Assembly: GCF_051278035.1 (NCBI RefSeq)
Contig: NZ_JBNMNU010000014.1
Span: 1-24,000 of the forward strand
From: Clostridium sp.
GTDB taxonomy: Bacteria > Bacillota > Clostridia > Clostridiales > Clostridiaceae
DNA length: 24,000 nucleotides
Reading direction: 5' to 3'
Shown: positions 3,628 through 23,717 of the stretch, piece after piece
Position numbering within the stretch: position 1 is the stretch's first letter
Layout of the letters: every line of letters starts with the position of its first letter
Translations under genes and position numbers: made by a program
Notes under the pieces: generated by a model
The model's input: only the letters and a program-made list of their open reading frames with translations
Database searches by the model: none
Told to the model about the DNA's origin: nothing

Positions 3628-6168
3628 ATGAAGGCATTAGAAGTTAAAAAAGATATATACTGGGTTGGAGCATTAGACCCTAAACTTAGAATTTTCGATA
3701 TAATTATGTACACCCCTTTTGGTACTACTTATAACTCTTATTTAGTTAAAGGCAGTGAAAAAACTGCAGTATTTGAAACAGTAAAAGAGAGGTTTTTCGA
3801 TGAATATTTAGAAAGATTAAAATCATTAGATGTTAATATAGAGGCTATTGATTACATAGTAGTAGATCATACGGAGCCAGATCATGCAGGCTCAGTTGGA
3901 AAACTATTAGAAATTTCTAAAAATGCCAAAGTTGTAGGCTCCGCTGCTGCAATTGAATTCCTTAAGGATATTATAAATAAAAATTTCGAGTACATAATTG
4001 TAGGAGACGGAGATACTATAAGTCTCGGAAATAAGACCTTATCCTTTGTATCTGCACCATTTCTTCACTGGCCAGATTCCATTTATACATACGTTGAAGA
4101 AGATAAGCTGCTTATAACATGTGATTCGTTTGGAAGTCATTACTGTAATGAAAATATGTATAATGATTTAAATGAAAATAAGGATGATTATAATGAATCA
4201 CTAAAATATTACTTTGACTGTATTATGGCACCCTTTAAACCATATGTATTAAAAGCTATAGACAAAATAAAGGACCTGAAAGTAGACATAATATGTCCCG
4301 GCCATGGTCCTATTTTAAGAGAAGACCCATGGAGTATAGTAAATAAATACAAAGAGTGGAGTCTACCAGAAGAAACTTCCTTAGAGCCACAAGTTACCAT
4401 ATGCTACGTTTCTGCTTATGGATATACTGAATCGATAGCTAAAAAAATAGAAAAAGGTATAAGCTCCCATTGCGATTTCAAGGTTAACACCTTTGATGTT
4501 ATATATCATGATATAAAAGACATTTTAGAAAGTATAGATAAATCTGAAGGGATAATTTTCGGTTCTCCTACTATAAACTCAGACGCTTTAGAACCTATAT
4601 GGGATATACTAACAAAACTTAACCCTATAGTTCATGGTGGAAAAGTAGCCTCTGCATTCGGTTCATATGGTTGGAGTGGAGAAGCTGTTCCAAATATTGA
4701 GGATAGATTAAAACAAATTAAATTAGATTTATATCCTTCCATGAATTTCAAATTTAAACCATCAGAAGATGATTTAAACTTTGCATATAAATTTGGAGAG
4801 TCATTCGCTGAAAAAATATCTAAAAAGATAAAAATGAAAAATCGTCCTACTAAACCTTCTACAGAAAAAAGATGGAAATGTTTAGTTTGTAATGAAGAAT
4901 TTGATGGACCAAAACCACCCGATATCTGTCCTGTTTGCGGTGCAGGTGCTGATCAATTCATCCAAATATCCGAAGACGTAGTAACCTTTTCTTCTGACAA
5001 GAAAGAAAAATTTCTAATCATTGGTAACGGGGCTGCTGGATATTATGCTGCAGATGCAATAAGAAAAAGAAATAAAGAGTGCAGTATTGAAATAATCTCA
5101 GATGAACCCTACTTAACCTACTATAGACCTTCTATTTCTGATGGAATAAGTGAAGACCTTAAAGACGAGAGTTTCTACCTATCTCCGAAAGAGTGGTATG
5201 AGGATAATAACATAAGCCTTAACCTAGGAGTAAAGGTTCAAAACTTAAACCCTGAGAAAAAACAAATATTACTTATGGACGGAACGGCTATAGGTTATGA
5301 CAAACTCATACTAGCAAATGGTAGTAAAAACTTTATGATTCCCGTACCAGGAGTGGAAAAAGAAGGTGTATTCACTTTAAGAAATCTAAAAGACTTACAG
5401 GCTATTAAAAATAAAATGAACACAGCTAAAAAAGTAGTAATTGTAGGAGGTGGACTTTTAGGACTTGAAGCTGCCGCTGAAATTAAAAGCGCTGGTCTTG
5501 ATGTTGCCGTAGTGGAATTTAGCGATTCTCTACTTATAAAACAACTAGATAGTGAAGGTAGCCTTATACTTAAAACTGCAGTTGAAAGCCAAAACATCGA
5601 AGTTATGCTCTCTGATTCTGTAGAAGTTATACAGGGGGAAACTTCTGTTACCTCTGTTAAATTAAAAAGCGGAAAAATACTAGATGCAGACTTAGTGTTA
5701 TTTTCAACAGGTATTGCACCAAACAAAAATATAGCCGATAACACCAATATAATTACAAATAAAGGCATAATAATAAATGAAAATATGGAAACTAATATTA
5801 AAGATATATATGCCTGCGGAGACATAGCAGAATTTGACGGTAGAGTATATGGAAATTGGCCTGCCGCTATAGAAATGGGAAAAGTCGCCGGTATGAACGC
5901 AGTAGGTGATCATAAAATCTACGTACCATCCCTAGGCGTAATTTCCTTCAACGCTATGGATCTTTCACTATTATCTGTAGGTGAAATAGCCAAAAATGCA
6001 TATAAAGCTATTAGCACAAATGATACCGAAAACAAAATATACAAAAAACTATTCTTCACTGAAGATATAATAACGGGCGGCATAATAATAGGAGATAACA
6101 AAGCTTCATCAAAATTAATAAGTGACATCGAAGATTCAAAATCACTAAAAGAAGTGCTTGTCCTATAA
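3628..6168 (+). CDS. Multidomain flavodiiron protein: metallo-beta-lactamase-like diiron domain, flavodoxin, rubredoxin and NAD(P)H:rubredoxin oxidoreductase (O2/NO reductase)
   Basis: 846 aa. N-terminus has the HTEPDH diiron motif. A flavodoxin-like block follows (GSPTINSDAL...GSYGWSGEA). The rubredoxin module is WKCLVCNEEF...CPVCG (about 4870..4960). Then come FLIIGNGAAGYYAA (FAD) and VVIVGGGLLGLEAA (NAD) Rossmann motifs. Strong SD AAAGGAGA. Confidence 0.9.
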   Translation: MKALEVKKDIYWVGALDPKLRIFDIIMYTPFGTTYNSYLVKGSEKTAVFETVKERFFDEYLERLKSLDVNIEAIDYIVVDHTEPDHAGSVGKLLEISKNAKVVGSAAAIEFLKDIINKNFEYIIVGDGDTISLGNKTLSFVSAPFLHWPDSIYTYVEEDKLLITCDSFGSHYCNENMYNDLNENKDDYNESLKYYFDCIMAPFKPYVLKAIDKIKDLKVDIICPGHGPILREDPWSIVNKYKEWSLPEETSLEPQVTICYVSAYGYTESIAKKIEKGISSHCDFKVNTFDVIYHDIKDILESIDKSEGIIFGSPTINSDALEPIWDILTKLNPIVHGGKVASAFGSYGWSGEAVPNIEDRLKQIKLDLYPSMNFKFKPSEDDLNFAYKFGESFAEKISKKIKMKNRPTKPSTEKRWKCLVCNEEFDGPKPPDICPVCGAGADQFIQISEDVVTFSSDKKEKFLIIGNGAAGYYAADAIRKRNKECSIEIISDEPYLTYYRPSISDGISEDLKDESFYLSPKEWYEDNNISLNLGVKVQNLNPEKKQILLMDGTAIGYDKLILANGSKNFMIPVPGVEKEGVFTLRNLKDLQAIKNKMNTAKKVVIVGGGLLGLEAAAEIKSAGLDVAVVEFSDSLLIKQLDSEGSLILKTAVESQNIEVMLSDSVEVIQGETSVTSVKLKSGKILDADLVLFSTGIAPNKNIADNTNIITNKGIIINENMETNIKDIYACGDIAEFDGRVYGNWPAAIEMGKVAGMNAVGDHKIYVPSLGVISFNAMDLSLLSVGEIAKNAYKAISTNDTENKIYKKLFFTEDIITGGIIIGDNKASSKLISDIEDSKSLKEVLVL

Positions 6169-8104: not shown

Positions 8105-8407
8105 TTTGAGATGCAGTATTATAAAATGAATGATGGAAGGAGTTCTAAATATTCTTATAAAACGTCACAACTATTAAAACCGAATAATCCATAAAACATT
8201 GTAATATTCACATCTGAATTTATGGTGTTTTTTTACATAATGATACTATTATATAGTCCATTAATTCGTTTATTAGTTTAGCCGTATTTAAAATGAATGT
8301 TTTATGTTAAATATTTGAAACTCATATTAATATTCTATATAATTGAATAAGGACAGACTTTTATTTATTATAAAGCGAAAATCATTTTTAGAATTGGGGG
8401 GATTTAT

Positions 8408-8605
8408 ATGAAAAGATTAAAAGAAATACTCGTTGGAATTGGATTCTTAATTAGTGGCGTTTTAGGCGTATCAATAGGTAATTTGGAACTTACTTTAAAT
8501 ACTGCGCGTCGTTATAGACACTCAGTTTCATATCTTTTGTTTGCGTTCTTTATTATAGTGGGATTAATATTTATAATCATGGGATTGATGAAAAAGGATG
8601 ATTAA
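8408..8605 (+). CDS. Small 2-TM membrane protein
   Basis: 65 aa with a GGGGGG SD 6-7 nt upstream and two hydrophobic helices flanked by basic residues. Confidence 0.55.
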   Translation: MKRLKEILVGIGFLISGVLGVSIGNLELTLNTARRYRHSVSYLLFAFFIIVGLIFIIMGLMKKDD

Positions 8606-8712
8606 CAAATAATAAAAGATATAATCTTTAGCAAATTTAATATACAACTTTCTAAAACTGCGACGCAACAGTAAAATATTATTCAACAAAACAATATAGA
8701 GGGAAAAACTTT

Positions 8713-8904
8713 ATGAAGAAATTTAAACTAGTCAGAAACTTACTTATCCTTTGTGGATTTGGTCTTTTGTTATCTGCTTTTATAGAATTACGTGTTTTTC
8801 AATTATCAGCCAATAAATATTCTCTTGTAGCAACAATTTTAGGTGGAATATCATGTATTCTCTGTTTTATTAACGCTTATATATACCATAAGAAAATTAA
8901 TTAA
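8713..8904 (+). CDS. Small 2-TM membrane protein
   Basis: 63 aa with a GAGGGA SD and the same MKK-TM-loop-TM-KK layout as the preceding ORF. Confidence 0.55.
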   Translation: MKKFKLVRNLLILCGFGLLLSAFIELRVFQLSANKYSLVATILGGISCILCFINAYIYHKKIN

Positions 8905-9248
8905 TCCACAAGTATTAGACCAAAGTGATTCTGAATTTCATCATCATTTCTTAGTATTGCATTCTTTACATCGCTTACATGGACCACTACCAAAAGCTAT
9001 CGCCTTATAATATCCATCTAGTTACAATTGATTTAGTATTTATAATAGATATACTATCTGATCCCATATTCTTTAGCAACAGTTTGTACTTTTCCATATT
9101 AATCTTCCTTCCATTTCTTAAGACTTTTACAGAATCTTAGTTTATGTAATGAAAAATCCCCGTAAGCATCCTCCACTCATTTAACCGTTATTTGGCATAA
9201 TAGCTTAAATCTATATCAACAAATATTAGCATAAGTAAAAGGATGAAG

Positions 9249-9474
9249 TTTCTCCGCAGTGTCTTGCAATAAGAAGGGCAGAAACAATTGAAATTTAATT
9301 TAGAAATTCTTGTTTTGCAATTGTGAAATTCTCGTAAGCCTGCCAGGACGGCAGGCTAGCGAACCTGAGCCAGGAAGGCGAATGTGAGTGTTAGAGTATT
9401 TTACAAGGGCAAAACCTAGAATTTTTTAATGAAATTTCCTGTTTCAAGCTCTTTTGCAAGGCACGCAGGAGAAG
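9249..9474 (+). repeat. Long-hairpin structured element, copy 1 (candidate ncRNA or ERIC/MITE-like palindromic element); strand tentative
   Basis: This is a ~226-nt imperfect palindrome. The left arm (tttctccgca...gaaattctc) pairs with the right arm (gagtattt...acgcaggaga). The 66-nt apical core 9331..9396 is 59% GC and contains hairpin gcctgcc-aggac-ggcaggc. A second copy lies at 22501..22725. Confidence 0.75.
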
Positions 9475-9483
9475 TCGTCATCA

Positions 9484-10134
9484 TTACTTTGCTAAAGCTT
9501 CCGCTATAAGTACTAGTATATGTTCCCTATCTTTTTCGTTATTCTCAAAATCTAACTTATCCACATTTATCTTTAAAATTGGAGATATATCATAGTCCTT
9601 AAAATAAGCCCTATAATTATCATTTAACTTTTCCCAGTACTCACGTTCCACTATTTTCTCATAATCTCGGCCTCTTTTATTGATTTTAGCCATAGCAGAA
9701 TCCACAGAGGTTTCTAAATATACAAGCAATTTAGGCGCCTTGCAATGCTCAATCATATTTTCAAATAAATCCATATATAAATCAAATTCTTCCTTACCCA
9801 TTTCCCCAGCTTCATTTAACATCTTAGCAAAAATTACATCTCCATAAATACTTCTGTCCATTACTGCATTTTTAACCTTAGAAGCATCCTTTATGTGTCT
9901 AAATCTTCTATTAAGAAAAAATATTTGTAACGAAAAACTATATCTCTCCCTATCATAATAAAACTTTTCCAATATAGGATTATCCGCCACCGGCTCCTCA
10001 AAAGGAATATACCCCTTCTCAGCCATTATATTCATAAGCGTACTCTTCCCTACTCCAACCACTCCATCTATAACTATCATATCCCAAGTGCCTCCTCTAT
10101 TTATCTTGCTCAATGCTTCCTTATAAAATCCCAT
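9484..10134 (-). CDS. Deoxynucleoside kinase (dAK/dGK/dCK family)
   Basis: IVIDGVVGVGKSTL P-loop, then FEEPV.DNPILEKFY and FSLQIFFLNRRF, which are dNK family hallmarks. An alternative start at 10080 (MIVIDG) follows AGGAGG with a 10-nt spacer. Confidence 0.9.
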   Translation of the reverse strand: MGFYKEALSKINRGGTWDMIVIDGVVGVGKSTLMNIMAEKGYIPFEEPVADNPILEKFYYDRERYSFSLQIFFLNRRFRHIKDASKVKNAVMDRSIYGDVIFAKMLNEAGEMGKEEFDLYMDLFENMIEHCKAPKLLVYLETSVDSAMAKINKRGRDYEKIVEREYWEKLNDNYRAYFKDYDISPILKINVDKLDFENNEKDREHILVLIAEALAK

Positions 10135-22440: not shown

Positions 22441-22500
22441 TAATCCTTTTCTAATATCTTTTCGTTACTATGCACACCACTCATAAAGTTCACATAATAC

Positions 22501-22725
22501 TTTCTCCGCAACGCCTTGCGAAAAGAATCGAGAAACTATTAAATTTGATTTTAGAAATTCTTCTTTTGCGAATGCAAAATTCTCGTAAGTCTGCCAGGAC
22601 GGCAGACTAGCGAACCTGAGCCAGGAAGGCGAATGTGAGCGCTAGAGAATATTGCATGAGCAAAATATTAGAATTACTAGCTTTAATTTCTCGTTTTGAG
22701 TTTCTTATTGCAATAACGCAGGAGA
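22501..22725 (+). repeat. Long-hairpin structured element, copy 2; strand tentative
   Basis: Same architecture as 9249..9474. The first 10 nt (tttctccgca) and last 10 nt (acgcaggaga) are identical in both copies. Core 22582..22647 is 62/66 identical to 9331..9396. The right end is 5 nt from the galE stop codon. Confidence 0.75.
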
Positions 22726-22730
22726 TTCGC

Positions 22731-23717
22731 TTATTTTACGTACCCTTTCGGATGTCCCTTGTGCCACTCCCATGCTGTTGCTATGATGGTTTCTAGTGAA
22801 TCACATTTAGGCTCCCATCCTAATATTTCCTTAGCCTTTTCACTCGAAGCGATAAGCACTGCTGGATCTCCAGCACGTCTTGGTGCCATTTCTGCTTTTA
22901 TTTCTTTTCCCGTAACTTTTCTAGTTACATCTATTACCTCTTTAACAGAAAAACCCTTACCGTTTCCAAGATTGCATATTACGCTATCTTCGCCTCGTCT
23001 AAGCCTTTTTACTGCAAGCAGATGAGCACTGGCAAGATCAGATACATGTACATAATCTCTAACACAAGTACCATCAGCTGTATCATAATCCTCTCCAAAC
23101 ACCATTATTTTTTCTCTTTGTAAAAGAGCTACCTGAAGTATAATAGGAATTAAATGAGATTCTGGTCTATGATCTTCTCCTATTTTACCGCTTACATGTG
23201 CCCCTGCTGCATTGAAATATCTTAGAGCCGTATATTTTATACCATAAGCTTTATCACACCATTTTAAGATCTTCTCAACCGCAAGTTTTGATTCTCCATA
23301 AGGATTAGTTGGAAAAGTCATATCCTCTTCAAGAATAGGAATATTCTCTGGCTCTCCATAAGTAGCTGCAGTAGATGAAAAAACTATGTACTTAACTTTA
23401 TGCTCCCTCATAGCCTTAAGTAAATTTATAGTAGATCCAATGTTATTTTCAAAATACTTTAAGGGCTCCGTAACGCTTTCCCCCACAAGTGAATCTGCCG
23501 CGAAATCTATAACTGCATCTATATTATTCTCCGTAAAAACCTTATTAAGTATTTCGTCGTCTCTTAAATCTCCAGAATAAATCTTTCCACCAAGTAATGA
23601 ATCATGATGGCCCTTTTGAAAATTATCTAAAACAACTACCTCTTCACCTTTTTCTAAAAGCTCAGCTACCATATGACTTCCAATGTAACCTGCTCCTCCA
23701 CATACTAAAATAGCCAT
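22731..23717 (-). CDS. galE: UDP-glucose 4-epimerase
   Basis: [15 protein letters not shown] (NAD Rossmann), SSTAATYG and YGESK (the SDR catalytic Y..K); 328 aa. Confidence 0.95.

Follow-up and report, generated by a model that had tools for sequence, protein, structure and literature searches.

A dispersed long hairpin at convergent stop codons in Clostridium, very probably a divergent TwoAYGGAY RNA

Two long hairpins facing minus-strand genes

In this study, we analyzed a 24,000-nucleotide stretch of a Clostridium sp. genome (contig NZ_JBNMNU010000014.1, positions 1 to 24,000; hereafter the window), in which a minus-strand deoxynucleoside kinase (dNK) gene converges with a long plus-strand hairpin, copy 1. 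A second copy of this hairpin faces a minus-strand NAD-dependent epimerase/dehydratase gene. We found that the element is not a new class, but part of a known orphan RNA family, and we assign it with high confidence to TwoAYGGAY (RF01731) as a divergent, under-detected member. Its apex is a three-way junction bearing two hairpins with C-AGGA-N-G loops and tandem G·A pairs in each. Members of the Clostridium estertheticum group carry the element as a dispersed multi-copy repeat, with two subfamilies, fragments, and filled and empty sites. The 3' base of the hairpin is flush with the stop codon of a convergent gene, in place of that gene's own terminator.

The plus-strand RNA of positions 9249-9474 folds as a single long imperfect hairpin of -96.8 kcal/mol, compared with -54.6 +/- 4.5 for dinucleotide shuffles (z = -9.4, 0/200 shuffles as stable), in agreement with the first-pass annotation that a model had made of this DNA. 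The minus strand of the same segment reaches -78 kcal/mol (z = -7.8). Comparison with about 25 relatives extends the pairing of copy 1 to about 9237-9486 and gives an element of about 245-250 nt, with a closing stem of about 100 bp and the overall shape of a 250-nt rod. Because the pairing runs outward this far, copy 1 meets the dNK stop codon (9484-9486) or overlaps it, instead of ending 9 nt from it, as had been annotated. In the alignment of copies, the consensus element ends are AAGTATGAA...TTCATACTT, which form terminal inverted repeats.

The apex is GC-rich and asymmetric, as first described, with a GC fraction of 0.56 in the 66-nt segment 9328-9393 and 0.24-0.36 in most neighbouring segments. 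Its first hairpin (gcctgcc-aggac-ggcaggc, 7-8 bp) had already been drawn, and covariation supports it. The second helix proposed at that time, cctg-agc-cagg, is not a conserved pairing. Comparative data give in its place G-C-C / AGGAA loop / G-G-C on a stack of U-A, G·A and A·G, the tandem G·A pairs (CUGAG / CGAAU), followed by the closing UAGCGAAC / GUGAGUGUUA. The two GGA loops, C-AGGAC-G (9344-9350) and C-AGGAA-G (9371-9377), stand about 28 nt apart, counted GGA to GGA.

The second copy, at about 22500-22727, lies 13,251 nt from copy 1 in the same orientation with 84% identity, which bears out the reported distance of 13.25 kb. Compensatory changes distinguish the two copies: GCC...GGC in hairpin 1 becomes GUC...GAC, and CGCUA appears in the hairpin 2 stem. 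Copy 2 also adjoins a minus-strand stop codon, that of the epimerase gene (22731-22733), which falls inside the outermost part of the hairpin. A consensus terminator scan of 9000-9700 returned none, consistent with the annotated view that the element abuts a kinase stop with no other terminator. Copy 1 itself does not have the form of an intrinsic terminator, since its stem is far too long and is followed by no more than short U-rich stretches.

On the 5' side of copy 1, positions 8105-9236 (about 1.1 kb) contain no open reading frame (ORF) of more than 65 amino acids, and two short ORFs there (8408-8605 and 8713-8904) gave no Pfam match. Feature coordinates are collected in Table 1, in which handles beginning with L denote comparison loci.

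Table 1. Coordinates of the hairpin copies, their parts, the convergent genes and the 46-nt mini-insert
Feature	Position	Strand	Basis or remark
Copy 1, whole rod-like hairpin (closing stem and apex)	9237..9486	+	folding; nhmmer profile match 9231-9492
Copy 1 P0, 5' arm of closing stem	9237..9336	+	pairs with 9394-9486
Copy 1 apical TwoAYGGAY-type domain, two hairpins	9337..9391	+	model R1, 45.9 bits
Hairpin 1, 8-bp stem, loop AGGAC 9345-9349, closing pair C9344-G9350	9337..9357	+	covariation
Hairpin 2, outer stem AGCGAAC / GUGAGUGUU, tandem G·A	9358..9393	+	comparative data
Hairpin 2, inner part: U-A, G·A, A·G followed by G-C, C-G, C-G, loop AGGAA	9372-9376 (loop)	+	
Copy 1, 3' arm of closing stem, outer end overlapping dNK stop	9394..9486	+	folding, alignment
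Deoxynucleoside kinase gene, convergent with copy 1, stop 9484-9486	9484..10134	-	Pfam dNK, E = 5.5e-55
Copy 2, whole hairpin, outer arms more decayed	22488..22739	+	nhmmer match 22482-22745; orthologous copy in L046
Copy 2 apical TwoAYGGAY-type domain	22588..22642	+	model R1, 49.2 bits, E ~9e-10
NAD-dependent epimerase/dehydratase gene, convergent with copy 2	22731..23717	-	Pfam Epimerase, E = 2.4e-59
Mini-insert in hairpin-1 loop	L005 6255-6300; L015 6625-6670; L028 1458-1499; L045 6988-7033		
Mini-insert after GAAUGUGAGUG	L009 2188-2234; L017 3833-3878; L034 1669-1714		
Mini-insert after GAAUG	L038 2692-2737		
Mini-insert, further loci	L064, L073, L080, L095		

Covariation and relation to RF01731

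TwoAYGGAY was described in 2010 from human gut metagenomes, gamma-proteobacteria and Clostridia, and was rated as probably RNA and not cis-regulatory (Weinberg et al., PMC2864571); its closing stem is often very large (Additional file, PMC2864571). A 2025 preprint calls the family relatively unexplored. In Rfam it belongs to the CsrB/Rsm clan (CL00106) and has a gathering score of 43 bits. The ortholog of copy 1 downstream of the dNK gene in a sister genome (L026, 89% identical) matches the full-length model at 65.1 bits, which essentially overturns the earlier label "unclassified". A copy of subfamily B, described below, scores 46.4 bits (L039), and metagenome loci found with the core pattern of the window score 50-94 bits (L164 93.6, L072 90.2, L172 79.8, L115 60.8, L163 51.1). 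The loop type C-AGGA-N-G is also present in L072, the match at 90 bits.

We also built a 59-nt covariance model of the apex, R1, from seven non-Clostridium sequences. In the window, R1 found copy 1 at 45.9 bits (E ~5e-9) and copy 2 at 49.2 bits (E ~9e-10), on the plus strand only, with the next-best match at 8.6 bits; as a pattern derived from the window had been used to retrieve the training loci, this result is not entirely independent. Both window elements show the features of TwoAYGGAY: two adjacent hairpins with GGA loops, covarying stems, tandem G·A pairs and a long closing stem.

Substitutions among the copies preserve pairing, which was the comparison that the first-pass annotation had called for. 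In a 70-pair consensus hairpin from 15 Clostridium copies, 95.1% of positions are paired, and both sides have changed in 34/70 pairs, compared with 10.1 +/- 2.2 in shuffles (0/500) and 6-12 in slid controls. For the apex, 111 R1 hits (104 distinct sequences) gave 91.4% paired cells and both-side changes in 18/20 pairs. The covariation score of the apex was 0.558, whereas shuffles gave 0.129 (0/500 reach the observed score) and slid controls 0.036-0.066. Across the 104 distinct sequences, hairpin 1 has both-side changes in 9/9 pairs, which are 95.2% paired. In hairpin 2, the pair beside the loop-closing pair covaries (CG 50, GC 27, AU 26), and in some families Watson-Crick pairs are swapped for tandem G·A pairs.

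The non-canonical pairs of the apex are strongly one-sided: G·U/U·G occurs 30 times and A·C/C·A twice, while G·A/A·G occurs 143 times and C·U/U·C seven times. These one-sided G·A and G·U pairs indicate that folding takes place on the strand with the CAGGA loops, the plus strand of the window, convergent with dNK. The asymmetry is limited to the apex, and G·T and A·C occur in the arms at similar numbers. We rejected the idea that the plus strand is in general the better folder of the whole hairpin, as this held for only 8/15 copies with a mean difference of -2.2 kcal/mol. A short peptide starting at the ATG of the terminal repeat was also discarded, its reading frame, judged by eye, not being kept between copies.

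A dispersed repeat and its placement

A search of related Clostridium genomes, as proposed in the first-pass annotation, was carried out with a 19-nt core word and yielded about 25 genome copies, all in the psychrophilic C. estertheticum group (C. frigoris, C. bowmanii, C. estertheticum, C. tagluense, C. algoriphilum and related metagenome-assembled genomes). The other 25 hits of this word were chance matches in GC-rich genomes. Related genomes carry at least 2-5 copies each, with at least about 25 overall, and profile searches revealed extra copies, half-copies and tandem partial copies within the same loci. The element was absent from phage and plasmid collections by BLASTN and from viral contigs by exact-pattern scans. 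A neighbour-joining tree of the copies was star-like and distorted by insert residues, and on it one ancient insertion at the dNK site is not separable from repeated insertion.

The dNK site is filled in the window and in L026, L051, L052 and L055, and is empty in L054, where the gene ends in ...TKIKY* followed by a canonical terminator. The dNK C-terminus is ALAK* in the window, ALGKQR*, ALGKIK* and ALEKIEKE* in orthologs with filled sites, and ALTKIKY* at the empty site. This variation among filled sites places the element at or within the last codons. In L039 and L052, the gene stops at a TGA or TAA that belongs to the end of the element itself.

No consistent target-site duplication was found in about 16 independent loci, and a TA or TTA duplication was rejected as inconsistent across loci; the copies are old (mean identity 76%), so that a duplication of 2-3 bp could have decayed. 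Neither a transposase nor a recurrent neighbour gene was found across the element families. All-against-all clustering of 1,363 flanking ORFs returned just ordinary families (ABC transporter, GntR/UTRA, PDZ) or orthologs from single loci.

In L052 and L055, an additional gene with a PBECR4 domain, a predicted toxin-like nuclease family, lies downstream of dNK and the element (L052 2814-3545, L055 2785-3462). In the other genomes compared (L054, L056), the dNK region runs straight to an amidase gene. The presence or absence of the PBECR4 gene marks the region around this element as a variable spot. Immediately after the dNK-locus element in L052 (about 2410-2490), there is also a decayed second apex with a diverged form (ctctgggggacataattatttattgttatgagtgctggcaggctta) of the mini-insert described below, another example of element clustering or nesting.

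The placement relative to genes is highly regular. In plus orientation, the right end adjoins the stop codon of an opposite-strand gene in 21/22 evaluable genome copies, and after collapsing orthologs it falls within -8 to +9 nt of the stop in about 13 of 16 independent loci. Of the remaining loci, one is 28 nt off behind an ordinary terminator, one is 56 nt off, and one lacks a gene close by. On the opposite side, 82-1,127 nt of intergenic space are free, so that by a rough estimate flush placement would be very unlikely by chance. An automated survey of all families counted 32 hairpins with the 3' base at most 25 nt from a convergent stop and 6 with the 5' base beside a co-directional stop. 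Closely spaced copy pairs are always back-to-back (-,+), as the convergent-stop rule predicts between convergent genes. In the locus represented by L015, L019 and L020, an ordinary terminator is kept between the stop codon and the element.

Beyond this group, we scanned metagenomes with the skeleton common to subfamilies A (that of the window copies) and B, CAGGACG - spacer - CUGAG N CAGGANG N CGAAU. The scan returned at least 120 loci on contigs of 29-68% GC. Among the loci listed, the motif always sits at the tip of a hairpin of 250-870 nt, with minimum free energies of -110 to -197 kcal/mol across families.

Subfamily B is present at L039 960-1220 (-), L026 3923-4144 (-) and L035 530-790 (+), and in at least 16 metagenome loci (e.g. 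L057, L087, L133). Its arms are unrelated to those of A, and its apex reads CAGGCC-AGGAC-GGCCUG / GCACUU-CUGAG-AC-AGGAC-GU-CGAAU-AAGUGC. It often lies within a few hundred nt of a subfamily-A copy of the same genome, back-to-back. Its distance to a convergent stop is 86-119 nt, the length of one arm. Family C is a high-copy metagenomic family on about 32 contigs of about 41% GC (L068, L069, L094, L114, L117, L127, L143 and others), with an identical apex, arms of 270-435 nt, rods of 650-870 nt, and scores below the RF01731 cut-off. Conserved and hypervariable blocks alternate in its arms, and the outermost parts are copy-specific yet complementary between left and right. Some of its copies (L089, L094) contain one-sided nested insertions.

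Two metagenome loci, L072 (about 3900-4160) and L107 (about 4930-5180), share the same flanks and carry the whole element, arms and apex, in inverted orientation. This suggests either inversion by arm-to-arm recombination or insertion in both orientations at one site. The same family also occurs in the human-gut contig L112, and in it the 5' side, not the 3' side, mostly adjoins the gene end.

Some apices contain a 46-nt mini-insert, CATAACAATTAATAATTGTTATG-TCCCCCAGAGAACTACCCAGAGG, which consists of a perfect 9-bp hairpin and a CCCAGAG direct repeat. Within the DNA retrieved, it is confined to element apices, in one orientation and at three or more different sites (Table 1); it is not found in the window. 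Orthologous loci differ in its presence (found in L015, not in L019/L020) and in its position (L045/L028 versus L017/L009), and L014 has none. These differences among orthologs show that the mini-insert either moves or is spread through gene conversion. The behaviour as a repeat, the fixed placement at convergent stop codons and the nested apex-specific mini-insert appear undescribed; the first two are not in the TwoAYGGAY literature examined.

Proposed role, rival explanations and known systems

Overall, the best explanation is probably that the element is a dispersed TwoAYGGAY RNA, which may bind a CsrA-like dimer and act as a two-way terminator. The plus strand would be transcribed, and the two GGA loops would clamp one dimer of a CsrA-type protein, for which the RNA would serve as a decoy or sponge. 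The long stem would confer nuclease resistance and halt transcription from both directions. Taken alone, binding of a CsrA-type protein is the more doubtful part of this proposal, and we put it forward tentatively.

Several observations are consistent with such binding. Weak matches to the CsrB model cover both loops, one of them at 9337-9356. A CsrA sponge is expected to have at least two GGA motifs in loops, spaced for bridging by a dimer, and the element has two at the spacing of about 28 nt. Mercante and co-workers are said to have found, in 2009, a bridging range of 10-63 nt for the CsrA dimer. The loop CAGGA(N)G equals the CsrB repeat consensus. For TwoAYGGAY itself, both loops match the CsrA-binding motif on stems with tandem G·A pairs, and the family has been proposed as CsrA-binding small RNAs (sRNAs) of Clostridia (Gardner & Eldai 2015, PMC4333381). 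As of that paper, the class of CsrA-titrating sRNAs had been identified only in Gammaproteobacteria (PMC4333381).

Other observations weigh against this explanation, beginning with the family model. The Rfam search that the first-pass annotation suggested for both copies had a divided outcome: L026, the subfamily-B copy of L039 and metagenome loci pass RF01731, while the window copies have no match at the gathering score or at E <= 10 (9100-9650, 9255-9470). At E <= 10, the window returned just weak CsrB, miRNA and snoRNA noise. The cut-off is passed by one of about 17 subfamily-A copies (18 loci), which puts this clade at the edge of the current Rfam model, and the window copies, lying below it, are counted as divergent members. 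The agreement between R1 and the metagenome loci is partly by construction, as the search pattern was taken from the window. With respect to function, CsrA binding by TwoAYGGAY is a published hypothesis; neither window copy has a convincing promoter, and read-through mRNA from the adjacent gene would carry the complement, with UCCU loops in place of GGA loops. Finally, the arms are without strand bias (G·T 27, of which 9 are at one conserved site, versus A·C 17), so that arm pairing could be a property of the DNA.

The strongest rival is that the element is a selfish palindromic DNA repeat, such as a MITE (a miniature transposable element with inverted repeats) or foldback element, whose apex is the recognition site of a mobilizing enzyme and which has no RNA function. 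We consider this unlikely. The element has terminal inverted repeats (AAGTATGAA...TTCATACTT) and many dispersed copies of less than 300 bp, as expected of a MITE, and its fragmentary, tandem and nested copies and its filled versus empty sites would fit as well. Together, the unbiased arms, the inversion between the identical flanks of L072 and L107, and the copy-specific yet complementary outer parts of the 270-435-nt family C arms fit arm-to-arm templated correction at the DNA level. Recombination or correction of this kind, through quasipalindrome template switching, may maintain the arms rather than selection for an RNA duplex. The apex is what argues otherwise: it is conserved in hosts of 29-68% GC, and its G·A and G·U pairs are specific to one strand, which favours a folded single strand over a DNA duplex. 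Moreover, no target-site duplication could be defined, no transposase or recurrent neighbour accompanies the families, and TwoAYGGAY is a curated Rfam RNA family. Selfish spread is in any case compatible with RNA function, and features of both kinds would be expected of a mobile sRNA gene.

A broader reading joins these features, and we consider it improbable as a whole. TwoAYGGAY elements may be self-propagating sRNA genes that spread without a dedicated transposase and settle at a convergent stop, or grow their arms up to it, replacing the terminator. With every copy would come a twin-GGA module for protein binding, possibly the equivalent in Firmicutes of the CsrA sponges, and perhaps coupled to the neighbour gene by antisense or transcriptional interference. 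The apex-only 46-nt hairpin might be a second-order parasite of this module or a switch on it.

It is more unlikely still that the element is a 3' untranslated region hairpin of the neighbouring gene's own transcript, which would terminate or stabilize the dNK and epimerase mRNAs or stall ribosomes at the stop. Its position on or against the stop with no other terminator is what this reading predicts, a canonical terminator occupies the same place at the empty dNK site, and the minus strand of the copies is also very stable, folding at -71 to -118 kcal/mol. Nevertheless, it leaves unexplained why a 55-nt apex is conserved across phyla and why the orientation is fixed (32 convergent versus 6 co-directional). 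Nor does it account for non-canonical pairs that suit the gene's opposite strand alone, and the locus of L015, L019 and L020 keeps an ordinary terminator between the stop and the element.

The least probable of the rivals, and one to which we give very little weight, is a cis-antisense regulator, in which a promoter in the 5' arm starts an RNA at the apex that continues along the 3' arm and on into the convergent gene. The product would be an antisense RNA with a 5' domain for protein binding. A promoter-like sequence, TAGAAA-N17-TAAAAT, stops about 12 nt short of the apex in 34/65 low-GC copies, on the plus strand only and at a fixed position without a mirror on the other arm, and the orientation, convergent and flush with the gene end, would suit such a transcript. 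The match is weak (9/12 positions) in AT-rich DNA and was scored in low-GC copies; in the window copies it falls below the cut-off, with TGAAAT and CAAAAT at the equivalent of about 9303-9331. In addition, the closing stem, part of both the Rfam model and the covariation, would be missing from such a transcript.

Other identities were rejected: hammerhead, hairpin ribozyme, K-turn, T-loop, SRP and ssoA/CS-6 (core residues misfit by eye, without Rfam support); an IS200/IS605-type single-stranded DNA transposon (no tnpA/tnpB nearby, fully palindromic elements, and a structured strand that would lie on the leading-strand template if the neighbours are co-oriented with replication); and an integron attC site (no RYYYAAC...GTTRRRY ends, no transposase near, housekeeping neighbours). 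The first-pass annotation had likewise excluded a list of known classes, and its exclusion holds for the window copies, in which attC and IS605 features are missing and for which Rfam gives no family match.

Since 2010, TwoAYGGAY has remained an orphan among RNA motifs, and Firmicutes appear to have no established CsrA-titrating RNA. Our data extend the family to psychrophilic Clostridium as a multi-copy repeat mostly missed by the Rfam model, and they show that the family is under-called by annotation pipelines. The functional strand is fixed by the one-sidedness of the G·A and G·U pairs, and the flush placement at convergent stops is seen in several unrelated host groups.

The proposed role can be compared with known systems. 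CsrA sponges have 4-22 sites per RNA. Like CsrB, RsmY and RsmZ, the element presents GGA motifs in hairpin loops, but it has two sites per RNA, a rod-like stem, many genomic copies and a Firmicute host. Liang, Rudd and Deutscher are reported to have described, in 2015, the role considered above for a hairpin in the gene's own transcript, in their case for stop-proximal REP (repetitive extragenic palindromic) sequences in Escherichia coli. REPs are about 35 nt long and are mobilized by RAYT transposases. As with these REPs, a stable hairpin within about 15 nt of the stop could hinder terminating ribosomes and protect the mRNA 3' end; unlike them, the element has its conserved structured strand opposite to the gene.

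Bacterial MITE-like repeats (ERIC/IRU, Correia/NEMIS, RUP and Bacillus cereus bcr1) resemble the element, as reviewed in PMC3184786, in being small, non-coding, dispersed and intergenic with inverted-repeat ends and presence/absence polymorphism, and these repeats are often co-transcribed with their neighbours as RNA hairpins. The element differs from this description in that we found no target-site duplication or parent insertion sequence, its orientation to the neighbour gene is fixed, and it combines an apex conserved across phyla with arms particular to each family.

Compared with TwoAYGGAY as described, the loops here have 5 nt (AGGAC and AGGAA) rather than the 6-nt AYGGAY, the two hairpins have almost no linker, the closing stem reaches about 100 bp, and the window copies fall below the Rfam model. 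The likeness lies in the adjacent pair of hairpins with (Y)GGA(Y) loops, the stems with tandem G·A pairs, the often very large closing stem, and the occurrence in Clostridia and gut metagenomes.

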